A stretch of 59,298 nucleotides of DNA from an uncultured Candidatus Saccharibacteria bacterium (GTDB taxonomy: Bacteria > Patescibacteriota > Minisyncoccia > JACQLN01 > CAZPCT01), in assembly GCA_964600085.1 (NCBI GenBank), contig CAZRHU010000002.1:1-59298 (forward strand), read 5' to 3'. The position numbers and the translations under genes were made by a program. Under the pieces are notes generated by a model, which saw nothing but the letters and a program-made list of their open reading frames with translations, made no database searches and was not told the origin of the DNA. This document shows positions 1 through 59,169 of this stretch, one piece after another; within the stretch, counting starts at the first letter, position 1, and each line of letters opens with the position of its first letter.

Positions 1-102
1 AAGGAGTCATTCGACCGGACAGGTCCAGTCACCCGGTCATTCGACCGGACAGGTTTGACCGGACAGGTTTGACCGGACAGGTTTGACCCCTCGGGAGGGG
101 TT
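1..102 (-). repeat. GC-rich tandem-repeat promoter-upstream module, copy A (cut by window edge; its promoter end would lie left of position 1)
   Basis: 14-mer GACCGGACAGGTTT in tandem at 43-56, 57-70 and 71-84, plus degenerate copies and GTCAYYC octamers. These are followed by hairpin GACCCCTCGGGAGGGGT (85-101). Same family as 2129-2194 and 58695-58828. Confidence 0.8.
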
Positions 103-112
103 GTTTGGCCTC

Positions 113-1848: not shown

Positions 1849-2092
1849 CTTTTCTTTCTATTTTTCTCTAACTCCACCTATAAGCCTATAGACAATTCTC
1901 TAGTTTGACCTAGAGAACCCTAAGTCTTGGGAAACACAGGGAGGAGAATGCTCCGAGGATAAGTTCAGTTTAAAGGCCGAAGCCAAAAAACCAATCCGTC
2001 CTAAATCTAAGAGAAAACTCCTGTTATCTATAGGCCTATAAGAAGAGCTTAAAGAGAAGAACAAAAAAGTACAGTACCCCTCCAATACGTAC
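1849..2092 (-). ncRNA. orphan structured RNA of unknown class (rod-like, possibly 6S-like)
   Basis: Own TTGACA promoter and terminator. A 16-bp closing helix pairs 1877-1892 with 2027-2042. It has two G-U wobbles on the minus-strand RNA but C-A mismatches on the plus strand. Internal hairpins include GGC-UUCG-GCC and CUCUAG..CUAGAG. The 61-aa ORF there has no SD and is implausible. Confidence 0.5.
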
Positions 2093-2099
2093 TATCTAA

Positions 2100-2128
2100 A
2101 GGTTAATCTATTATTTTACTCTTGTCAA
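2100..2128 (-). promoter_or_regulatory. promoter TTGACA-N17-TAACCT, fused to repeat module B
   Basis: Reverse complement of 2123-2128 is TTGACA, the spacer is 17 nt, and the reverse complement of 2100-2105 is TAACCT. The upstream flank GGATGACCGGATGACCCC-TTGACA is identical to the one at 58811-58834. Confidence 0.55.
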
Positions 2129-2194
2129 GGGGTCATCCGGTCATCCAGTCACCCAGTCATCCAGTCATTCGACCGGACGGGTTCGACCCCTTAA
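2129..2194 (-). repeat. GC-rich tandem-repeat promoter-upstream module, copy B
   Basis: Minus strand reads GGGGTCGAACCCGTCCGGTCGAATGACTGGATGACTGGGTGACTGGATGACCGGATGACCCC, followed by TTGACA. It has one 14-mer unit plus five GGATGACY-like octamers. Confidence 0.8.
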
Positions 2195-2291: not shown

Positions 2292-3305
2292 ATGGCTGAA
2301 GAAAGAGAAGTAAAACCAAAACAAAGCGAAGAAGATAAGGTTTTAGATCAAACGCTGAGGCCCCATCTTTTAAAAAATTATATCGGTCAAGAACAAATAA
2401 AAGAAAACTTGGCTATCTTTTTATCGGCTGCCCAAAAGAGAAAAGAATCCCTAGAACACGTTCTTCTCCACGGTCCAGCTGGACTAGGAAAAACCACTCT
2501 AGCTTATATAATATCTAGAGAATTAGGTGTAAATATAACCACCACCTCGGGACCGGCTATAGAAAGAGTTGGCGACCTAGCTTCTATCTTAACCAATCTC
2601 AACGACGGAGACGTTCTCTTTATAGATGAAATACATAGAATAAATCGCACAATTGAAGAAGTGCTCTATCCGGCAATGGAAGATTTTATCTTCGATATAA
2701 TTATAGGCAAGGGCCCTTCGGCTAGAACTGTTCAACTACAACTCCCCCGCTTCACCTTAATAGGAGCAACCACTAGAGCAGGGTTGTTAAGTTCTCCTTT
2801 TAGAAGTCGTTTTGGCGCCACTTATCATCTTGATTTTTATAATGATAAAGATATAGAAGCGATTTTGAGCAGGTCTTCTAAAATTTTAAATGTAAAAACT
2901 GATAAAAAAGCTATAGAAATAATTGCTGGGCGTTCTAGACAAACGCCTCGAGTAGCCAACCGCCTCTTAAAGAGGGTGCGCGATTATTCCCAAGTAAAAT
3001 CCAACGGAGAGATAAACAAGGAGATTGCCTCAGTGGCTCTTAGTATGTTAGAAGTTGACCAAAAAGGATTAGAAAAAATGGATAGAAAGATCTTAGAAAC
3101 TATTATAAAAAAATTCAACGGTGGTCCCGTTGGAATTCAAGCTTTAGCTGCCTCCGTTGGAGAGGGACGGGACACAATCTTAGATGTTTACGAACCCTAC
3201 CTTCTTCAGGCCGGTCTTATAATCAGAACCCCTAAAGGAAGAGAGGTGACTAACATTGCCTATAAGCACCTATCCTTAGTTCAGTCGCAAGAAAAGTTGG
3301 TATAA
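2292..3305 (+). CDS. ruvB: Holliday junction branch-migration helicase RuvB
   Basis: AAA+ Walker [12 protein letters not shown], Walker B LFIDEIH, sensor motifs, and full-length collinearity with the RuvB family. Confidence 0.95.
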
Positions 3306-7620: not shown

Positions 7621-8841
7621 ATGCTTATAGATATGAATAAAGAAATAGACAAAATACTAGAACGCGGGGTTATAGCTGAAGTGCTACCAACAAAAAAGGG
7701 TTTTAAAAAAGCTCTTTTAGGAGATAAAAAATTAAAATTTTATCTCGGAATAGACCCCACAGCAGCTTCTATTCACCTGGGGCACGCTCAAAATATAATG
7801 CTCTTAGAAGATTTTAGATCTCTAGGTCATGAGGCTATTCTTTTAATTGGTGATTTCACAGCTAGAATTGGAGATCCTTCGGGGATGACAAGTGCCCGAA
7901 AACCTCTCTCTTTGAACGAGATAAGAAAAAATGTAGAAGAAATAACTAAAAATATAGACAATATAATCGGTATTAAAAAAAAGAAAAATCCAGCCAAGCT
8001 TTTATTTAATAGCCAGTGGTTGGAAAAATTAAATTTTGAAGAGGTTTTAAGTCTAAGCTCAAACTTTACTGTTCAGCAAATGATAGAGAGGGATATGTTT
8101 AGAAAAAGAATAGAGGATAAAAGACCAATTTTTTTAAATGAGTTTTTTTACCCTCTTATGCAGGGGTACGACTCTGTGGCTATGAATGTAGATGCGGAGA
8201 TAGGGGGAACAGACCAAACCTTTAATATGCTAGCCGGTAGAACTCTTTTAAGAAAATTAAAAAATAAAGAAAAATTTATTATTACTACAAATTTAATTCA
8301 AAACCCTAAAACCGGGGAGCTGATGTCTATGAGTAAAGGGACTGGTGTTTTTGTAAATTCCCCGCCTAAAAAAATGTTTGGCGAGGTAATGGCCCAGCCT
8401 GATGAAATAATATCGGTCTTATTTAAAAGCAACACCAGAGTTCCTTTAGAAGAAATAAAAGAAACGGAAAAGAGAGTGAAAGAAGGTGGAGAAGAAGTTA
8501 GAGATATAAAAATGAGATTGGCTGAAGAAATAGTTTCTATTTTTTACTCTTCCGAGAAAGCTTGTAAGGTAAAAGAAGAGTATAAAAGAACATTTTCTAA
8601 AAAGAAGCTACCTCGAGATATAAAATTAAAAAAACACCCCCTAAGAAGAGATGCCCTTTTAAATATTGTTTGGAAATCTAATCTAGTTTCTTCTAAGACA
8701 GAAGCTCGTAGATTGATAAAAGATGGAGCTGTTGAGATTAACGGAGAGAAAATAAAGGAAGAAAAAAAAGAAATAGACTTGACCAACGGGATAATTTTAA
8801 AAATCGGGAAACATCGATTTTTAAAATTAGAATCAGAATAA
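7621..8841 (+). CDS. tyrS: tyrosyl-tRNA synthetase
   Basis: HIGH motif (IHLGHAQ), KMSKS-like LMSMSKG and a C-terminal S4 domain. The start could instead be the ATG at 7633. Confidence 0.9.
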   Translation: MLIDMNKEIDKILERGVIAEVLPTKKGFKKALLGDKKLKFYLGIDPTAASIHLGHAQNIMLLEDFRSLGHEAILLIGDFTARIGDPSGMTSARKPLSLNEIRKNVEEITKNIDNIIGIKKKKNPAKLLFNSQWLEKLNFEEVLSLSSNFTVQQMIERDMFRKRIEDKRPIFLNEFFYPLMQGYDSVAMNVDAEIGGTDQTFNMLAGRTLLRKLKNKEKFIITTNLIQNPKTGELMSMSKGTGVFVNSPPKKMFGEVMAQPDEIISVLFKSNTRVPLEEIKETEKRVKEGGEEVRDIKMRLAEEIVSIFYSSEKACKVKEEYKRTFSKKKLPRDIKLKKHPLRRDALLNIVWKSNLVSSKTEARRLIKDGAVEINGEKIKEEKKEIDLTNGIILKIGKHRFLKLESE

Positions 8842-9087: not shown

Positions 9088-9212
9088 GGTTTTTTATTAA
9101 GTATTATTTTAAAACGACCTTTTGATAGGTGTTGAAATTATTATAATCGTAAAAAAAAGAGTGTCAACCCTTTATTTATATTCTTGTCCACATAAAAGTT
9201 TAAAAAAATAAA

Positions 9213-9704
9213 CTAAGCCTTTTTAGGGGTGTTGTTAAAATAGATTTCTCCAGCAGCGCAAACAGCAATTGCTAAGGCATCGGCTGCGTCATCCGGCTTG
9301 GGTTCTTCTTTTAAATTTAAAATTAATTTGACCATTTTTTGAACTTCTTTTTTATCAGCTTGACCGTGAGTGCTAATCGAACGCTTTACTTCGTTGGGTG
9401 TATAATTTTTTACCACAACACCCCTTTTTAAAGCCGCTAATTTAATCACCCCCCTTGCTTCACTAACAGCCATGGCTGTTTTTTTATTTTTACTAAAAAA
9501 AACTTTTTCTATCGAAACAACGTCTGGATTTTCTTTTTTTAAAATTTCTTCTATTTTTTTATAAATCTCTAGAATTCTTTTTTCTTCTTCTTCTTTTTCT
9601 AAAAAAATACAACCATAGTTTTTAGAAAACAGCTGTTTTTTTTTCTTTTCTATCACCCCAAAACCTATTCTGGTAGTTCCTGGATCAATACCCAATATAA
9701 CCAT
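9213..9704 (-). CDS. ruvC: crossover junction endodeoxyribonuclease RuvC
   Basis: ILGIDPGTTRIGFGVIE N-terminus and RNase H-like catalytic acidic residues, including the C-terminal DAADALAIA. Confidence 0.9.
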   Translation of the reverse strand: MVILGIDPGTTRIGFGVIEKKKKQLFSKNYGCIFLEKEEEEKRILEIYKKIEEILKKENPDVVSIEKVFFSKNKKTAMAVSEARGVIKLAALKRGVVVKNYTPNEVKRSISTHGQADKKEVQKMVKLILNLKEEPKPDDAADALAIAVCAAGEIYFNNTPKKA

Positions 9705-10547: not shown

Positions 10548-11663
10548 TTAAACCCTTATGGGCATCACTACATAAATATAAGAGTTGTCTTCGGGAGATT
10601 TAATTAGAACGGGTTTGGTTTCTTCTGTGAATTTAATTAATACCTTATCATCTTCAACTTGTTGTAATCCTTCTAATAAATATCTCCAATTAAAACTTAT
10701 TTCTATATCGTCTCCCTCTAGCTCTGTTTTTATACTAGATGAATTCTCTCCCAAATCGGGATCGCTAGCATAAGCTTTTAGGTTGGCTTTTTTACCATCG
10801 CCATCAATAGATATTTTAATGTCGTTTATTCGGCTCGACATTAAACTTACCAAACGTATCGTTTTTATAAGTTCGTTTTTATTTAATAAGATCTCTGTTT
10901 TAAATTTAGAAGGAATAAAATTATCATAATTAGGATAACTTCCTTCTATTAATCGCGATGTTAGTTCGTTTTGTTGTGTTTTAAAAGCAACTTGATTATT
11001 ATCTACACTTACCTCTACTTCATTTTTTCCGGATATTAATCTTGTTAATTCAGAGGCTGCTCGTTGAGGAAGAATAAAAGAAAAGTCTAAATTTTTATAA
11101 TTTTTATCTAAGAGTATTCTCTTTTCCGCCAAGCGAAAACTGTCTGTTGAAACAAGTTTTAAGTCTTGATTATTTTTTTCTTTTTTAAAAAGAACTCCTG
11201 TTATCTCTGGCCTGGTCTCTGAAGAAGATGTAAAAGGTATGATTTGGTTTAATGCTTGAAGTAGATCTTGAGCCTTAATTTTTATAGAGTTTCTTTTTTG
11301 GACTTTTGGAATTATAGGAAAATCTTTTGATGTTTGTCCTTTTAATTCTCCTTTATAATTACCAGAAGATATTAATAGGGTTGTACCTTTTTTAGATGTT
11401 AATTCTATATTATCCCCTGATAAATTACTTATAATTCCTGACAAAACTTTAGCGGGAACCGTTATCTCTCCACTTTCTTTTACTTTACAAGAAAACCAAG
11501 AGTGGATACCGATTTCTAAATTAGTAGAAGATAAAAATAAATTACTATCTTCTGTTTTTATTAAGATGTTATTTAAAATCGGTAGAGTTAGATTTTTAGT
11601 AATAACTCTTTCATTGTTTTCCACCGCTTTTTTTAATTTTTCATAAGTACAAATTAATTTCAT
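10548..11663 (-). CDS. dnaN: DNA polymerase III beta sliding clamp
   Basis: 371 aa with three-domain clamp collinearity, immediately downstream of dnaA. Confidence 0.9.
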   Translation of the reverse strand: MKLICTYEKLKKAVENNERVITKNLTLPILNNILIKTEDSNLFLSSTNLEIGIHSWFSCKVKESGEITVPAKVLSGIISNLSGDNIELTSKKGTTLLISSGNYKGELKGQTSKDFPIIPKVQKRNSIKIKAQDLLQALNQIIPFTSSSETRPEITGVLFKKEKNNQDLKLVSTDSFRLAEKRILLDKNYKNLDFSFILPQRAASELTRLISGKNEVEVSVDNNQVAFKTQQNELTSRLIEGSYPNYDNFIPSKFKTEILLNKNELIKTIRLVSLMSSRINDIKISIDGDGKKANLKAYASDPDLGENSSSIKTELEGDDIEISFNWRYLLEGLQQVEDDKVLIKFTEETKPVLIKSPEDNSYIYVVMPIRV

Positions 11664-11878
11664 ATATTTAATTTATTGTTATTATTAAAGAGTATTTTTT
11701 TGGGGATAAAACTATTAATCTTAATATTCTAGAGACTTTTAAAGATTAAGTGGTAGGGAAAAGTTGTTTAAAAAGTATTTATTAAAACTTAAAACTTAAT
11801 GGATAAAAAACATTTTTTAAAAAAGAAAATTATTTTTCATTTTTTATTAGATGTTTTTCCCCAAAAAATTAACAACTT
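11664..11878. promoter_or_regulatory. dnaA-dnaN intergenic AT-rich region with DnaA-box variants (oriC candidate)
   Basis: TGGGGATAA at 11701-11709 (rc TTATCCCCA), ATGGATAAA at 11809-11817, and TTTTCCCCA at 11855-11863, surrounded by long A/T tracts. Confidence 0.45.
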
Positions 11879-13240
11879 TTAATTAAAAAGCCTACTCTTT
11901 ATAAGATCTATTTCTTCGTTGAAATTTTCATTATTTTTAATTTCTTTCTCTATTTTATTACAAGCGTGCATAACCGTTGTATGGTCTCTTCCGCCAAACT
12001 TTTCTCCTATATACGGATAAGAGTTCTTAAGCTCTCTTCTTATTAAATACATACAAATTTGCCTCGGTCTCACAATCTCTCTTTTTCGGGATTTATTAAT
12101 AAGATCCTCTTCTTTAACATCATAAAAACTAGAAACAATTCTTATTATATTTTTAGTGTTTATTTTAGCTTTACTTTTTTGATTTAAACTAAGGAGACTT
12201 CTAACCCTCTCCACTGAGGGAGTTTTACCTGTTAGGTGGGTTGTCGCCACAACCTTATTTAAAGCTCCCTCTAACTCTCTTATATTAGAAGAAACCGTAT
12301 TAGCTATAACACCAAGAATCTCATCGTCAACTCCATAGCTTTTCTCTTCTACCTTTGTTTTTAAGATGGCTAACCTTGTTTCGTAGTCGGGCGCTGATAT
12401 ATCAGCTATCATCCCCCCTTCAAAACGTGAACGAAGTCTTTCCTCAAGAGTTGGTATTGCTTTTGGTGGCCTATCCGAGGATAGGACGATCTGTTTATTT
12501 CTTCCGTGAAGATCGTTAAAGGTGTGAAAAAACTCTTCCTGAGTTTTTTCTTTTCCAGATATAAATTGGACGTCATCCAGTATTAAAAGATCTACTTTTC
12601 TATAATCATTTTTAAATTCCTCGGTGCCCTTTTTTGATATAGCTGACACAAGATCCCTAGTAAACTTTTCTGAGCTTACATATTTTATTTTCTTTTGGGG
12701 ATTGTTGGTTTTTATATAATTTCCAACAGCCTGTAAAAGGTGTGTTTTTCCTAAACCGACCCCACCGTATATAAATAAAGGGTTGTAAGTTTTACCCAAG
12801 TTTTCACTAACGGAAACAGAGGCGGCATGAGCTAGTTCGTTAGAAGACCCAACCACAAACGATTCAAAGGTGTATTTAGGATTAAGGTTGGTTTCTTTAT
12901 CTGTATCTACTTCCGCGAAGTTTAACTGGTTTTCTAAGGCAGCGGTGTCCACCTCTTTCTTTTTTGTTTTCTTTTCTCTTATCGCCAACTCTTCTTGGGG
13001 TTTTATGATAAATTTTATATCTTTTGTGTCAGAGGTTATATTTCTTAACGACTTTAAAACAAGTCGGTTATATTTTTTTTCTAACCACTCTTTAGTGAAG
13101 GTGTTTGGGACAGCTAGAACAACAACACCATTCTTTTTCGAGATAATAGATGTATTTTTAAACCATGTAATAAAATTAGCCCTCGATATAGATAGTTCTA
13201 TTTCAGCTAAAGCTGACTGCCAAAGTTCTTCTTTGTCCAT
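11879..13240 (-). CDS. dnaA: chromosomal replication initiator DnaA
   Basis: Walker A GGVGLGKTHLL, Walker B LLILDDVQF, sensor and arginine finger motifs, and a C-terminal box-binding HTH (GGRDHTTVMHA). Confidence 0.95.
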   Translation of the reverse strand: MDKEELWQSALAEIELSISRANFITWFKNTSIISKKNGVVVLAVPNTFTKEWLEKKYNRLVLKSLRNITSDTKDIKFIIKPQEELAIREKKTKKKEVDTAALENQLNFAEVDTDKETNLNPKYTFESFVVGSSNELAHAASVSVSENLGKTYNPLFIYGGVGLGKTHLLQAVGNYIKTNNPQKKIKYVSSEKFTRDLVSAISKKGTEEFKNDYRKVDLLILDDVQFISGKEKTQEEFFHTFNDLHGRNKQIVLSSDRPPKAIPTLEERLRSRFEGGMIADISAPDYETRLAILKTKVEEKSYGVDDEILGVIANTVSSNIRELEGALNKVVATTHLTGKTPSVERVRSLLSLNQKSKAKINTKNIIRIVSSFYDVKEEDLINKSRKREIVRPRQICMYLIRRELKNSYPYIGEKFGGRDHTTVMHACNKIEKEIKNNENFNEEIDLIKSRLFN

Positions 13241-13466
13241 GGTTTTATTTTATTTAAAATAAAGTAGGGTTTAGGTTATCCCCATAAAGTTCAGAGGTAT
13301 TATAGCACAGCTAAAAATAGAGAAAAAACACCCCAAAAAAGTGAAATAGGTGTGGAAAAGCTGTTGACTATATGCTAACCTAAAGTCCTTTAAAAAATCA
13401 AACAAGACAATAGATTAATTTGTTTTTTTTTGCTAGAATTAACTAGTTAATATAAATACTGTTCTT
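13241..13466. promoter_or_regulatory. dnaA/rpmH divergent intergenic region with DnaA-box variants and promoters
   Basis: TTATCCCCA at 13276-13284, TGTGGAAAA at 13351-13359 (rc TTTTCCACA), TTGACT at 13364-13369 and TGCTAGAAT at 13430-13438. Confidence 0.45.
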
Positions 13467-13616
13467 ATGCCTAAATCAAAAGCTTTAACCTACAACCCAA
13501 AAAAAAAGAAGAGAAAGAGAGCGCACGGCTTTAGAAAAAGATCTTCTTCTCCAACCGGTCGTCGAGTTTTAAAGAATCGACGAAAAAAGAAAAGAAATAA
13601 TCTAACCCCTAAATAA
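13467..13616 (+). CDS. rpmH: 50S ribosomal protein L34
   Basis: Hand translation gives MPKSKALTYNPKKKKRKRAHGFRKRSSSPTGRRVLKNRRKKKRNNLTPK. It is absent from the ORF track (under 60 aa) and sits in the canonical position upstream of rnpA. Confidence 0.9.
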   Translation: MPKSKALTYNPKKKKRKRAHGFRKRSSSPTGRRVLKNRRKKKRNNLTPK

Positions 13617-13628
13617 GCCGGGCTTTTA

Positions 13629-13961
13629 ATGCTCTCTCAAAAAAATAAAATAAAAGATAAAGATTTAATCTCCTTAATTTTTAATAAGGGCGAATTTAAA
13701 AAAACTCGTCTTTTTAATTTATATATTCTTAAACTTTCTCCACCTCGACAATTTCTTGTTGTTGTTAGTAAAAAGCTTCAAAGAAGAGCGATAAAAAGGA
13801 ATCTTATAAAGAGAAGGGTTTATAATACTATAAACAATAATATAGATAGTTTTAAAAAAAATGTTAAAGTTATATTAATAGCTAAAGAAGGTCTTCTAAA
13901 TGAAACCGCTCAAAGTATTAAAAAAGATTTAAAAGATTTATTTATAGATGATAAAAGTTAA
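13629..13961 (+). CDS. rnpA: RNase P protein component
   Basis: 110-aa basic protein between rpmH and yidD, with an RNR-like basic motif (RRAIKRNLIKRR). Confidence 0.8.
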   Translation: MLSQKNKIKDKDLISLIFNKGEFKKTRLFNLYILKLSPPRQFLVVVSKKLQRRAIKRNLIKRRVYNTINNNIDSFKKNVKVILIAKEGLLNETAQSIKKDLKDLFIDDKS

Positions 13962-14217
13962 AAAGATACTAATATTTTTTATAAATATTTACCAAAAAAT
14001 TTTTTCTCCCCAAAAAGGGTTTTTAAAATTTTTATTTAACTCTCCTATACTAAACATCTACGGCAACATCCATCTGGGTTGTCGTTTTTATCCCACCTGT
14101 TCCGAGTATACTAAAAAAAGTATAGAAAAATATCCCATCTCGAAAGCTTTAAAACTTTCTCTTAAAAGAATATCTAAGTGTCACATCCTTAAGGATGGGG
14201 GTGTCGACGAAATATAA
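13948..14217 (+). CDS. yidD: membrane protein insertion efficiency factor YidD
   Basis: CRFYPTCSEY motif. Overlaps rnpA by 14 nt. Confidence 0.9.
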   Translation: MIKVKKILIFFINIYQKIFSPQKGFLKFLFNSPILNIYGNIHLGCRFYPTCSEYTKKSIEKYPISKALKLSLKRISKCHILKDGGVDEI

Positions 14218-14218
14218 A

Positions 14219-15001
14219 ATGATAACAGCTTTTTTTCATACAATTCTAACCCAACCACTATTTAATATACTGGTTTTTCTCTATAACACAGTTGCTTTTG
14301 GTGACTTTGGGTTGGCGGTTATCTTTATAACAGTTCTTATAAGGTTGATTTTATGGCCCCTGTCTTATAAGGCTATTAGGGCCCAGCGGGATATTCAGGT
14401 AATACAGCCCAAGGTAAAAGAGATTCAAAATAAATATAAAAATAATAAAGAAGAGCAGACAAAAGCCCTTTTAGAATTATATAAAGAAAACAAAGTCAAC
14501 CCACTCGGTGGATGTTTGCCCGTTTTAGTACAGTTACCTATTTTAATCGGTCTTTATAGTGTTTTGTTGAAGGGCTTGAATCCAGAATATCTTCAAAACC
14601 TCTACTCTTTTATAGATAATCCAGAAATTATAAACCCGAGCTTTTTAGGTATTCTTGATCTTTCTTCTAAGAGCGCGGTTCTTGCTTTAATAACGGGTGT
14701 TTTGCAATTTTTCCAATCTAAAATGATAATGCCCGGCGTTGGTCTTAGAGATAAGGTTAAAAAGGGTCCCGAGGCCATAGGTCAAATGGTTACCAAGCAG
14801 ACGGTCTATTTTCTACCCGTTGTAACCATCTTTATTGCCTGGAGCCTTCCTGCCGGACTTCCTCTTTACTGGTCAACCACCACCCTCTTTACAATTTTCC
14901 AACAATTTATTATAATGAGAACTCAAAATGGGAAAGAGAGAGGAAATAAAAAAAATAGTCGAGGAGACGATGGGCTTATTAGATCCCAAGGGAAAGATTG
15001 A
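14219..15001 (+). CDS. yidC: YidC/Oxa1-family membrane insertase (short form)
   Basis: Conserved core GCLPVLVQLPILIGLY and LPAGLPLYW. The start is uncertain (14195 or 14219). Confidence 0.85.
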   Translation: MITAFFHTILTQPLFNILVFLYNTVAFGDFGLAVIFITVLIRLILWPLSYKAIRAQRDIQVIQPKVKEIQNKYKNNKEEQTKALLELYKENKVNPLGGCLPVLVQLPILIGLYSVLLKGLNPEYLQNLYSFIDNPEIINPSFLGILDLSSKSAVLALITGVLQFFQSKMIMPGVGLRDKVKKGPEAIGQMVTKQTVYFLPVVTIFIAWSLPAGLPLYWSTTTLFTIFQQFIIMRTQNGKERGNKKNSRGDDGLIRSQGKD

Positions 15002-15383
15002 GCTTAAAGAAGATGCTGAAAAGCTCAGGATTAATTTTAATACAGAAGAAGCCGGAATACTTATTGGAAAAGGGGGAGGCAATTTAAGGGCTCTTCAACA
15101 CCTATTACTACTTGTTGTTTCAAGGAGAATGGGTTTAATTTTTAAGCCCGGGTCATTTGTTTTTGATGTTAATAATTACCACAAAGATAGAGAAAGATAT
15201 CTCGTAGCTTTAGCCAAAAACACAGCCCAAGAGGTGATAGATAGAAGGCGTTCTAAAGAGCTTCAACCAATGCCTGCTTCAGAGAGACGCATCGTCCACG
15301 TTACCCTTGCTGATTATAGCGGGATAAAAACAGAGAGCGTTGGCCAGAGAGATGAAAGGAGGGTGATTATAGGGACGGATTAA
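14928..15383 (+). CDS. jag: Jag/KhpB-like RNA-binding protein (KH plus R3H domains)
   Basis: GILIGKGGGNLRALQ (KH GxxG) and a C-terminal R3H-like ERRIVHVTL. The 74-nt overlap with yidC makes the start uncertain. Confidence 0.8.
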   Translation: MGKREEIKKIVEETMGLLDPKGKIELKEDAEKLRINFNTEEAGILIGKGGGNLRALQHLLLLVVSRRMGLIFKPGSFVFDVNNYHKDRERYLVALAKNTAQEVIDRRRSKELQPMPASERRIVHVTLADYSGIKTESVGQRDERRVIIGTD

Positions 15384-15420: not shown

Positions 15421-15447
15421 AAAAAACTCCCCGGCGGGGAGTTTTTT
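15421..15447. terminator. bidirectional intrinsic terminator
   Basis: AAAAAACTCCCC-GGC-GGGGAGTTTTTTT. Confidence 0.8.
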
Positions 15448-15456
15448 TGGTGAGAA

Positions 15457-37902: not shown

Positions 37903-38838
37903 ATGCTAAAAAATCTTTTAAAAGACTATCTTGATTACTTAGAGATAGAAAAAAATCGTTCTATAAAGACGGTTGAGAACTATAAAAGATACCTCAGTCA
38001 TTTCTTAGATTGGGCTAAGGTCTCTAAGCCCAGAGAGATAAACGACGATTTGGTTCGGAAGTATAGAATATATTTAAATAGGGAGGGAGGAAGAGATAAA
38101 AAACCCCTAAAGAAAATAACCCAGAACTACTATATTATAGCTTTGAGGGGGTTTTTAAAATACTTAACCAAGAGAAAGATGGATTCTTTAGCTCCCGAAA
38201 GAGTAGAACTCGCCAAGACCTCAGAGAGAGATATAGATTTTTTAGAAGTAGAAGAAGTGGAAAGATTATTATCTTCTCCAGACACTACTAACTTGAGAGG
38301 TCTTCGCGATAAGGCGATATTAGAGACTCTCTTCTCTACCGGGCTCAGAGTCTCAGAGATTTGCGGTTTAGACAGGGACTCAATAAATTTTAAACGCAAT
38401 GAATTTTCTATTAGGGGTAAGGGTGATAAGGTAAGAGTTGTTTTTTTATCTGAAAGAGCTAAAAAAGCGCTAAAGGAATATCTAGACAAAAGAATTGACA
38501 TTGATGAAGCTTTGTTTATAAGAGTGTTAAGAGGTAATTCTTTCGGCGAAGGGTCTTCTTCATCAGATCTTCGATTAACACCCCGTTCTATTCAGCGTCT
38601 AATAAAAAAATATGCCACCAAGGCCGGATTAATAAAAGACATTCATCCTCACACCTTAAGACATAGTTATGCCACCGATCTTTTACGAAATGGTGCTGAT
38701 CTTCGCTCTGTCCAAGCTTTACTGGGACATTCTAATATTACCACTACTCAAATTTATACCCACGTTACAGACAAGCAGCTCCGCGAAGTTCACCAAAGGT
38801 TTCATAGTAAAAAAAGAAAAATTAATAACTCTAACTAA
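37903..38838 (+). CDS. xerC: XerC/XerD-type tyrosine recombinase
   Basis: N-terminal SAM-like domain. Catalytic residues are present: R (TGLRVSE), HTLRHSYAT and [15 protein letters not shown]. Confidence 0.85.
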
Positions 38839-51846: not shown

Positions 51847-51875
51847 AAAAAAAACACCCACGGGGGTGTTTTTTT
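51847..51875. terminator. bidirectional intrinsic terminator (copy 1 of a 30-nt identical element)
   Basis: AAAAAAAACACCC-ACGG-GGGTGTTTTTTT. Confidence 0.8.
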
Positions 51876-51894
51876 GAGGAGACAAGGTGAAAAA

Positions 51895-54301: not shown

Positions 54302-54329
54302 AAAAAAACACCCACGGGGGTGTTTTTTT
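54302..54329. terminator. bidirectional intrinsic terminator (copy 2 of identical element)
   Basis: AAAAAAACACCCACGGGGGTGTTTTTTTGA is identical over 30 nt to 51848-51877. Confidence 0.8.
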
Positions 54330-54344
54330 GATTTAAATTTCCAA

Positions 54345-57866: not shown

Positions 57867-58523
57867 TTAAGAAAAATAAACAGCTTTTTCTATGTGTTCT
57901 ATCTTAGCTCTACCTGTGTTTTTATCCAATATAATTCCAATTACGTCAATCTGCCAATCAATATTATTAGGTAATTTTTTATGAGATAAGTAAAGTTGAC
58001 AAGAACGCATTAATCTTTTTTGCTTTGAGTAAGTCACTTGTTCTTCCGGCCTCATTATATTTGAGCTCATTGTTTTAACCTCAACAAAGACAATCTTCTC
58101 TCTGAATGCATGTATTGAGCTTTGTTGAATTGTTCTACGTGGAACAATTAGTTTGTTTTTGCTAAAAATAGATTTTAATTTATTCCATATTGTTCTACGT
58201 GCTTGTCTGTTCCGTAGGCGGGGAACATTTTGATCTTTTTTCTCATTTTCTAGCTTTCTATTTTTCTCCATAATTGTTCCACGTGGAACAATTCGATCTT
58301 TTTTCTCAATTTTTAATTTTCTATTTTTCTCCATAATTGTTCCACGTGCCTGCCCGTTCCGTAGGTGGGGAACAATATCTTCTTTTTTAGAGCAAATAAT
58401 GTCAATTTCTCCCCATTTTCGACGAAAATTTCTATCAATTATCTTGTAACCTTTTCTTTCTAGGTGTTTTGAGGCTATTTCTTCTCCCCAAGCCCCAATT
58501 TTTATATTTGAACTGTTTCCCAT
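57867..58523 (-). CDS. yraN: YraN/UPF0102 PD-(D/E)xK nuclease-fold protein carrying a roughly 95-aa repeat insertion
   Basis: GAWGEEIASKHLERKGYKII..RKWGEIDII and VFVEVK..QKRL..IDWQIDVIGI match YraN. The normal spacing of about 5 aa between the D and ExK motifs is replaced by IVPRGTI/IVPHLRNGQARGTI repeats. Confidence 0.8.
   Translation of the reverse strand: MGNSSNIKIGAWGEEIASKHLERKGYKIIDRNFRRKWGEIDIICSKKEDIVPHLRNGQARGTIMEKNRKLKIEKKDRIVPRGTIMEKNRKLENEKKDQNVPRLRNRQARRTIWNKLKSIFSKNKLIVPRRTIQQSSIHAFREKIVFVEVKTMSSNIMRPEEQVTYSKQKRLMRSCQLYLSHKKLPNNIDWQIDVIGIILDKNTGRAKIEHIEKAVYFS
58138..58385. repeat. four palindromic repeat units (two short, two long) plus a duplicated 45-nt spacer, in frame inside yraN
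   Basis: Short units AATTGTTC(C/T)ACGTGGAACAATT lie at 58138-58159 and 58282-58303. Long units ATTGTTCYACGTGC(C/T)TG(C/T)C(C/T)GTTCCGTAGG(C/T)GGGGAACA lie at 58199-58238 and 58345-58385. Confidence 0.85.
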
Positions 58524-58594
58524 TTTTTCTTTTTATTGATTTATCAACTCACAGTCGATCCACTGAAGGTTGATAATTTTTTATTTTCTCTTAA

Positions 58595-58636
58595 AATTGT
58601 TCCACGTGCCTGCCCGCTCCGTAGGTGGGAACAATT
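58595..58636. repeat. fifth copy of the long palindromic unit, intergenic
   Basis: AATTGTTCCACGTGCCTGCCCGCTCCGTAGGTGGGAACAATT, 72 nt upstream of the yraN start. Confidence 0.85.
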
Positions 58637-58694: not shown

Positions 58695-58828
58695 GAACCT
58701 GTCCGGTCGAACCTGTCCGGTCGAACCTGTCCGGTCGAACCTGTCCGGTCGAATGACCGGATGACTGGATGACTGGATGACCCCTCAAGAGGGGTCGAAC
58801 CTGTCTGGTCGGATGACCGGATGACCCC
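58695..58828 (+). repeat. GC-rich tandem-repeat promoter-upstream module, copy C
   Basis: GAACCTGTCCGGTC x4 (58695-58750), GAATGACCGGATGACTGGATGACTGGATGACC, hairpin GACCCCTCAAGAGGGGTC (58779-58796), a further 14-mer, then GGATGACCGGATGACCCC abutting TTGACA. Confidence 0.85.
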
Positions 58829-58857
58829 TTGACAACTTATCATTTTATTGATATAAT
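58829..58857 (+). promoter_or_regulatory. consensus sigma70 promoter TTGACA-N17-TATAAT
   Basis: TTGACA at 58829-58834, 17-nt spacer, TATAAT at 58852-58857. Confidence 0.75.
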
Positions 58858-58906: not shown

Positions 58907-59101
58907 ATGAACAAGACTGAGATCGTCCCAACTTCTTCTGTCTCTCACTCAAATCGCTCCAAGCTCTTTCCTCGGCGCTGTGCCCCAACTCAGGTCGAGG
59001 CGCAGAGAAGAGAAGAGGTGGACTGGTCCTTCGGTCGGCGAGCCGGTCGGGTCAAGAAGTTTGATCCTCATGCCAACATGCTGGAGATCTCCAGGGCCTG
59101 A
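58907..59101 (+). CDS. 64-aa basic protein of unknown function in a GC-rich mini transcription unit (could instead be a non-coding RNA)
   Basis: AAGGAG lies 7 nt upstream of the ATG. The unit sits between a consensus promoter and a 15-bp-stem terminator. Hand count of 58981-59040 gives 38/60 G+C, and codon usage (GTC, CTC, CGC, CTG, AAG) is unlike neighbouring genes. Confidence 0.45.
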   Translation: MNKTEIVPTSSVSHSNRSKLFPRRCAPTQVEAQRREEVDWSFGRRAGRVKKFDPHANMLEISRA

Positions 59102-59123: not shown

Positions 59124-59169
59124 GGAGCTCCGATCCGCCAACTGGCGGATCGGAGCTCTTTTCTTTTTT
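59124..59169 (+). terminator. strong intrinsic terminator
   Basis: GAGCTCCGATCCGCC-AACT-GGCGGATCGGAGCTC followed by TTTTCTTTTTT. Confidence 0.85.

Follow-up and report, generated by a model that had tools for sequence, protein, structure and literature searches.

The window, by which we refer to the whole 59,298-nt stretch analysed, is a complete contig containing three GC-rich repeat modules, termed here copies A, B, and C. Copy A lies at the contig end, upstream of pilB, and copies B and C occupy divergent spacers, with the genes that an initial annotation had placed on their far sides confirmed as pilB (149–1813), ruvB (2292–3305, RuvB Pfam domains being found on its syntenic counterparts), and yraN/UPF0102 (57867–58523, minus strand), respectively. 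The features of these loci are as follows.

1..104, minus strand: copy A, ACCCCT-CCCG-AGGGGTC, three AAACCTGTCCGGTC, GAATGACC GGGTGACT, GGACCTGTCCGGTC, GAATGACT..., with the contig end cutting its promoter-proximal side
1870..2050, minus strand: core of a structured ncRNA, driven by promoter B and ending at the bidirectional terminator 1823–1848
2100..2128, minus strand: promoter B, TTGACA-N17-TAACCT, the -10 at N17 not being TATAAT
2129..2190, minus strand: copy B, GGGGTC GAACCC GTCCGGTC-GAAT-GACTGGAT, then GACTGGGT GACTGGAT GACCGGAT GACCCC
58695..58750, plus strand: copy C sub-element 1, four exact GAACCTGTCCGGTC 14-mers (TRF, 4.2 copies, 100%)
58743..58762, plus strand: inner hairpin of sub-element 1, GTCCGGTC-GAAT-GACCGGAT
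58751..58782, plus strand: 8-mer array of copy C, GAATGACC GGATGACT GGATGACT GGATGACC, an amplified 3' arm
58779..58796, plus strand: hairpin of copy C, GACCCCT-CAAG-AGGGGTC
58790..58828, plus strand: copy C sub-element 2, a near-canonical unit, AGGGGTC GAACCT GTCTGGTC-GGAT-GACCGGAT GACCCC
58829..58857, plus strand: promoter C, TTGACA (58829–58834), 17-nt spacer, TATAAT (58852–58857), with a TG extended -10
58907..59101, plus strand: gene from promoter C, a putative 64-codon GC-rich ORF (protein or RNA) with an AAGGAG Shine-Dalgarno sequence
59124..59169, plus strand: intrinsic terminator of the C transcription unit, a 16-bp stem and T tract

The initial annotation had dissected copy C down to its promoter, and this anatomy is borne out to the base (58695–58857). 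It had further described copy B as built of the same unit types in other numbers and sharing an end with copy C, which is evident from 25 identical nucleotides (GGATGACCGGATGACCCCTTGACAA, including TTGACAA), and both copies, in like orientation, close with a shared 18 nt that reach exactly up to the -35 box. The three exact 14-mers and the hairpin reported for copy A are likewise present, together with one variant 14-mer, and copy A is 94% complementary to copy C over 65 nt. That the modules are real and mutually related despite unequal unit numbers is supported by the 14-mer, which at up to three mismatches has 12 matches against 1.7 expected (a count reached in none of 100 shuffles), and by the double octamer, with nine matches against 0.03 expected. 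The perfect TTGACA-N17-TATAAT promoter ascribed to all three copies is found at copy C only, with promoter B, which carries TAACCT, absent from the output of our promoter scan. Copy A is truncated at base 1 of the window, itself a complete contig, and hence shows no promoter.

Copy A is an assembly break within a repeat, its location at the contig end being that expected where a multi-copy repeat breaks the assembly. Upstream of pilB, the relatives L009, L010, and L011 carry a divergent lipoprotein-like gene with a TTGACA-N17-TATAAT promoter, and copy A probably faces this promoter just past the contig end; the sequence beyond is predicted to run GGATGACCCC, directly joined to TTGACAA, and then into the lipoprotein-like gene of these relatives. 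The terminal position of copy A, and the tendency of assemblers to collapse or expand tandem arrays, also raise the question of whether short-read mis-assembly created the repeat blocks or their copy numbers. This is hardly credible, with copies B and C embedded in unique, syntenic flanks, each array shorter than a typical read pair, and the same unit present in eight independent assemblies from other studies.

Architecture of the repeat unit

Every module reduces to a single nested-hairpin unit of 40–46 nt, composed of an outer stem, a bulge (GAACCY), and an inner hairpin (GTCCGGTC-GAAT-GACYGGAT), with the outer stem reading GGGGTC...GACCCC in this lineage and CCCGGTC...GACCGGG elsewhere. The 14-mer joins the bulge to the 5' arm of the inner hairpin, and the 8-mer GACYGGAT corresponds to the 3' arm of that hairpin, and the arrays are thus arm-specific tandem amplifications, with 14-mers numbering one to four and 8-mers two to five across A, B, and the two sub-elements of C (C1 and C2). 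Copy B is a single unit with an expanded 8-mer arm, containing one 14-mer-like unit and five octamers. Copy C comprises two hairpin elements arranged tail to head, the four 14-mers of the first being its amplified 5' arm (GAACCT + GTCCGGTC), and each of the 8-mers that follow is able to pair with a GTCCGGTC within these 14-mers. The GACCCCTCAAGAGGGGTC hairpin of copy C is simply the junction at which the end of sub-element 1 (GACCCC) meets the start of sub-element 2 (GGGGTC), an arrangement that recurs in copy A at 85–102. Sub-element 2 holds the fifth 14-mer of copy C (58797–58810, one mismatch), followed by GGATGACCGGATGACCCC at 58811–58828.

A covariance model, R1, was built from 12 units (alignment A4, 46-nt consensus) and gave four significant matches in the window (44.7–61.4 bits), all within the three modules and none elsewhere in the 59 kb contig, which therefore holds four units at three loci. 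These lie at 21–66 in copy A (50.7 bits), 2149–2194 in copy B (44.7 bits), 58727–58772 in sub-element 1 of copy C (61.4 bits), and 58787–58832 in sub-element 2 (58.1 bits), the last being not independent as this unit is among the 12 building sequences of R1.

The 12 units, drawn from nine assemblies, conform closely to the nested-hairpin structure (8+8 bp), with 88.5% of cells paired and six pairs showing compensatory changes, values that none of 500 shuffles reached. Examples of such changes include GTCGGGTC...GACCCGAC in L005, and A-T in place of G-T in L002b. Inner hairpins of the GTCCGGTC-GAAT-GACCGGAT type form the invariant core of the family, with the inner helix 100% paired in the 12 units. 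In preserving base pairing, this covariation points to a hairpin rather than to a duplex recognition site, and thereby counts against the reading of the modules as arrays of protein-binding sites, to which we return below.

The unit in other genomes and its absence from orthologous loci

A scan for the exact 23-mer core identified six loci in GTDB species genomes and two metagenome loci, with no matches among viral contigs. The six genome loci carry Patescibacteria or Saccharibacteria labels, with the addition of two MAGs labelled Gammaproteobacteria, and the eight other assemblies with the unit are for the most part Patescibacteria. The plasmid collection gave no match to the repeats, and the two matches obtained from phage, attributed to chance, fall in coding repeats with periods of 15 (pentapeptide-type) and 18 in place of 14.

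The contexts of these copies are varied. At L001 the unit forms an in-frame insertion of 14 amino acids (RSSGHSTGPQSDRA) in a UvrD helicase, with a gap at this position in the UvrD of the window itself, and at L006 it lies within the gene of a SpoU methylase; in both genes it is antisense to the mRNA. A further copy (L006, 3809–3854) sits inside the loop of a terminator-like hairpin, that of L007 precedes a T8 run, and that of L008, on a metagenome contig of 55% GC, directly follows a stop codon. At L002 (1106–1205 and 3028–3127), L003 (5634–5710), and L005 (1857–1910), the unit adjoins a tRNA gene and is bracketed by a partial duplicate of the tRNA 3' end, with the duplicates at the three loci matching at 16/16, 14/16, and 11/14 nt, and with the unit positioned exactly in the pseudo T-loop at L002 and L005. 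The two 100-nt repeats of L002 flank 1.9 kb, in which no integrase was found, and this tRNA-linked pair resembles the att sites of an integrating element. No tRNA 3'-end duplicates were found beside the modules of the window. None of the copies in other genomes touches a TTGACA box, and with ~2.5 14-mers at L003 and two at L007, arm amplification appears as a trait of the family.

The most common variant, GACTGGAT, forms G-U pairs only on the strand shown, which is the sense strand for the downstream gene at B and C. Together with the terminator-like settings of the L007 and L006b units, and a weak promoter-like site (58570–58597) that reads into copy C, this would be consistent with a module that acts when transcribed, its hairpins serving as a terminator or insulator ahead of the strong promoter, or as a REP/SPRITE-like processing site or stabiliser. 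However, the modules lie between divergent genes, such that no upstream gene reads into them (the gene to the left of copy A being placed from relatives), and no T tract follows them. Furthermore, the unit is antisense to the mRNA in UvrD and SpoU, L002 and L003 carry it in different orientations with respect to the adjacent tRNA, and G-T is the most tolerated mismatch in DNA hairpins also. We consider such a role at the RNA level decidedly unlikely.

The nearest relatives retain the gene order of the window, with identities of 62–63% for PilB and 67–73% for NusA. In their pilB-ruvB spacers both promoter and ncRNA are kept, the promoters reading TTGACA-N17-TAAACT/TACACT in L009 and L010 and TTGACA-N17-TATACT in L011, and the hairpin unit was not found in any of the three. 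The -35 box at locus B is separated from a conserved upstream block by a GC-rich segment that differs in each lineage, with the unit occurring only in the window. Unrelated GC-rich palindromes were observed directly 5' of the ncRNA -35 box in L009 (8780–8822) and L010 (2672–2750), that of L010 reading CCCCTCACCCTTTTTT...AAAAAGGGTGAGGGG and abutting TTGACA, which makes the position 5' of this box an apparent hot spot of hairpin DNA within the clade. At the yraN/nusA loci of L013 and L014, the promoter is retained as cTTGACAAnT...TGATAAnnT, together with the leader, Shine-Dalgarno sequence, GC-rich ORF of 64–74 codons, terminator, and neighbouring tRNA gene, which in the window is tRNA-Ile(TAT), and the 40 nt 5' of their -35 box are 20–28% GC. 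R1 found no significant unit in 76 kb of the loci of the six relatives.

As the relatives keep both promoters and the genes downstream without the unit, the promoters are inherited from an ancestor, the modules being insertions specific to this lineage. The proposed fusion of module and promoter finds no support in these loci, nor in the occurrence of the unit in other genomes without a promoter link. For annotation purposes, both TTGACA promoters are ordinary conserved promoters, driving an unclassified structured ncRNA at B and a small GC-rich gene at C. The former agrees with the suggestion that an RNA promoter lies downstream of the module: the ncRNA between pilB and ruvB (~180 nt) is conserved in L009, L010, and L011, with 17 of its 66 predicted pairs showing compensatory changes across the four sequences, a single-sequence fold of z = -7, and an invariant CUCCCUGUGUUUCCCAAGA stretch. 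It corresponds to no Rfam family. Searches of both loci and of the six relatives' loci against Rfam, at the gathering threshold and at E<=10, returned only tRNAs and noise, with a match to ALIL scoring 21 bits against a gathering score of 50 and attributed to chance.

Origin of the modules and their position at promoters

On balance, we lean towards the modules being copies of a previously undescribed, non-autonomous nested-hairpin repeat of the REP/BIME, BOX, or MITE kind, sporadic in Patescibacteria, with arms expanded by slippage. The mobility of the repeat, the slippage, and its neutral or selfish status are what we infer from these comparisons. In this lineage the unit would have inserted at three intergenic sites, each time abutting a pre-existing strong promoter on the 5' side of its -35 box, and slipped-strand mispairing would have amplified both arms, the 5' arm as 14-mers and the 3' arm as 8-mers, such arm-wise amplification accounting for the differing unit counts per locus. 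The module would thereby replace the DNA at about -36 to -100, which at locus C is A+T-rich and UP-element-like in relatives, and a change in promoter strength or local DNA structure would consequently be expected there as a side effect only, as follows from established knowledge of UP elements and transcription-driven supercoiling. It would also place a strongly hairpin-prone and slippage-prone tract between divergent promoters. A regulatory role of the modules is possible.

The description of the repeat as not a known element stands, with no description found in Rfam, the phage and plasmid collections, or the searched literature, where no paper connects REP or MITE elements, or this sequence, with Patescibacteria. 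REP and BIME sequences of Enterobacteria and Pseudomonas are short, G+C-rich imperfect palindromes that form stem-loops and occur outside genes, singly or in variable mosaic clusters (PMC3184786). The unit described here is similarly a G+C-rich imperfect palindrome that forms a stem-loop and occurs in mosaic clusters. REP sequences typically number tens to hundreds per genome outside genes, and the 59 kb covered here contain four units at three loci. In contrast to REP/BIME, it has no sequence similarity to these, no GT(A/G)G head at its foot, and no RAYT seen on the contig, and its nested hairpin has two arms expanding as direct repeats of different period, with some members in-frame within genes. 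Furthermore, the modules of the window lie in divergent spacers (B and C) or upstream of pilB (A) rather than at 3' ends or in convergent spacers, though elsewhere some copies are found after tRNAs or stop codons.

The BOX elements of Streptococcus pneumoniae are modular, structured, intergenic, and non-autonomous, vary in the number of an internal tandem subunit, and reportedly affect the genes beside them (PMC3184786). Our modules are likewise mosaics with a variable internal tandem subunit, which is an analogy of architecture and not a relation of sequence. The modules come from another group of organisms, and whereas BOX subunits measure about 45–60 nt, theirs measure 14 and 8 nt and form the two arms of a single hairpin. 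A further parallel is offered by GC-rich palindromic selfish elements of A+T-rich genomes, namely the Rickettsia palindromic elements (about 100–150 nt) and the GC clusters of yeast mitochondria, which are found both between genes and in-frame within them, as is the unit in UvrD (L001) and SpoU (L006), though the sequences are unrelated and neither group is known to expand its arms separately in tandem or to abut -35 boxes. The unit also contains GTCGAAC, which resembles the R'' box (RYYYAAC) of an integron attC with one mismatch, but there is neither a GTTRRRY partner nor a cassette array, and the attC, hammerhead, and T-arm readings of the unit amount to loose resemblances by eye.

Several observations count against this reading. 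One is the identical end of B and C at the edge of the -35 box, in a window with only 14 TTGACA sites in 118.6 kb (both strands), which random insertion does not predict and which calls for target preference, gene conversion (between the TTGACAA boxes), or selection. Another is that A, B, and C are all located in divergent promoter regions, with all four units promoter-proximal, whilst the usual places of REP-like elements are convergent spacers and the 3' ends of genes. Additionally, no target-site duplication was found at B, the flanks of which are TTTAA on one side and TTGACA on the other, and the flanks of copy C (CTTGAGACACT to the left and CTTGACAACT to the right) show only a degenerate resemblance as a duplication candidate. 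No RAYT, IS200/IS605 (Y1), or other transposase was found among the 54 ORFs of the contig, with a Xer-like tyrosine recombinase (37903–38838) being the sole recombinase.

The position of the modules is what speaks for an upstream array of protein-binding sites, a possible though not a probable reading, in which the repeated GTCCGGTC and GACYGGAT motifs would bind a protein that activates, represses, or insulates the strong promoters, the module having been recruited for this purpose. Such an array would account for the 25-nt junction at the -35 box, and for the occurrence of the four significant units of the 59 kb upstream of promoters and nowhere else, including copy A, which, to judge from the relatives, also faces a divergent TTGACA-N17-TATAAT promoter. 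Precedents exist in Neisseria, where small repeats, the Correia elements (CREE) and REP2, frequently precede genes and are linked to promoter activity (PMC3184786). Our modules share this promoter-proximal position; however, the Neisseria repeats carry promoter elements, whilst the -35 and -10 boxes here are ancestral and lie outside the repeat. Unlike Correia elements, moreover, our modules show no TA duplication or long terminal inverted repeats; a short (A)GGGGTC...GACCCC(T) of 6–7 bp does bound copy B and sub-element C2, and may represent either terminal inverted repeats or no more than the hairpin's outer stem. Further evidence against a binding array is that the relatives run the same promoters without the module, that copies in other genomes occupy coding sequences, tRNA trailers, and terminator loops and not promoters, and that no candidate regulator was found nearby on the contig. 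Moreover, just two of the eight TTGACA-N16–18-TAnnnT sites in the window carry a module, which also fits the favoured reading.

The initial proposal of an upstream activating element is not borne out by the DNA itself. UP elements are A+T-rich and span -40 to -60, whereas GC makes up 65% (C) and 57% (B) of the 40 nt that precede the -35 box. Other upstream activating sequences consist of phased sites for a known activator; the repeat periods of 14 and 8 nt are out of helical phase, which speaks against a binding array as well. Iterons, with which the array had also been compared, are direct repeats of ~17–22 bp located at a replication origin next to rep or dnaA. The periods of 14 and 8 nt are unlike these, no rep gene lies nearby, and R1 found no unit at dnaA-dnaN (10.5–13.2 kb), leaving the origin region without the repeats.

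On account of the -35 junction of B and C, we retain both the protein-binding array, at the low probability given above, and a reading in which the unit targets promoters. In the latter, which we regard as unlikely, the unit would be a site-specific miniature mobile hairpin that inserts at defined structures or sequences, homing to promoters, or one that has been domesticated as a shared control module. In other Patescibacteria it would target T-loops within duplicates of tRNA 3' ends, and here the 5' edge of TTGACAA -35 boxes. The CCGG-TCGAAT-GA-CCGG core resembles a tRNA T-arm, and a promoter-homing unit may thus be T-arm-derived. Were this to hold, the element would rewire the region upstream of the strongest promoters.

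A change in unit number that turns the downstream genes on and off, the copy-number switch suggested initially, is a very improbable role for the modules. Exact tandem repeats are indeed slippage-prone, and their numbers differ between the loci. In the simple-sequence-repeat promoters of Neisseria and Haemophilus, however, a tandem tract of variable copy number near the promoter lies in the -35/-10 spacer, and classical promoter phase variation depends on repeats that sit within the spacer or on an activator site in phase, other such tracts being placed in the transcribed or coding start. The tract here ends at the 5' edge of the -35 box, outside the core promoter, with a fixed, repeat-free spacer of 17 nt, and gain or loss of 14-mers or 8-mers therefore cannot change the -35/-10 spacing, which makes a switch of the classical form unlikely. 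The nearest relatives for comparison of unit number are, moreover, only 62–73% identical in protein.

Returning to the favoured reading of a hairpin repeat with expanded arms, Patescibacteria have tiny, streamlined genomes, and neither Rfam nor the literature searched yielded an interspersed repeat family described from them. An element of this kind that crosses lineages, is tolerated in-frame within genes, and occurs in pseudo-tRNA T-loops and at -35 boxes would mark DNA mobility in Patescibacteria, and would also be a cause of assembly breaks in MAGs. If the -35 junction stems from targeting or selection, these loci would provide a natural system in which repeat expansion reshapes the upstream regions of consensus promoters.

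The small ORF and neighbouring features

The small ORF downstream of promoter C is positionally conserved, lying at 58907–59101 (plus strand) in the window, 9192–9386 (minus strand) in L013, and 7711–7935 (minus strand) in L014, with a W.FGR.A.R motif as the only shared feature. Its GC3 is 0.63, compared with 0.28 for the genes of the genome. No word-sharing homologue, Pfam family, or BLASTP similarity to its positional counterpart was found, and its single library match is a 373-residue ORF of five tandem repeats with SRSFGRRAGRVHRHGP, with which it shares SFGRRAGRV.

In yraN (57867–58523, minus strand), the UPF0102 domain is split by an insert of ~100 amino acids containing a 63-bp tandem repeat (58222–58348) and palindromes of the GTTCCACGTGGAAC type. 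The exact 14-nt palindrome GTTCCACGTGGAAC is also found inside yraN of L012, L013, and L014, and an interrupted copy of this type lies in the spacer beside copy C (58597–58633). These palindromes look like a second repeat family or a conserved site. At the contig end, 59226–59298 (plus strand) encodes a tRNA-Ile with the anticodon TAT, the unmodified UAU isoleucine anticodon being uncommon in bacteria, and tRNA genes similar to it by sequence identity (77–85%) occupy the same locus in L012, L013, and L014.

Elsewhere on the contig, a 30-nt bidirectional terminator hairpin, AAAAAAACACCCACGGGGGTGTTTTTTTGA, occurs twice in identical form, at 51848–51877 and, 2.4 kb away, at 54302–54331, with a related hairpin at 15421–15450. 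The neighbourhood of the chromosomal origin (10548–15383) comprises dnaN and dnaA, then rnpA, yidC, and a KH/R3H (Jag-like) gene, and a type IV secretion-like cluster with a T4SS pilin and a TraG/VirB4-like ATPase extends from ~15.4 to 25.9 kb.
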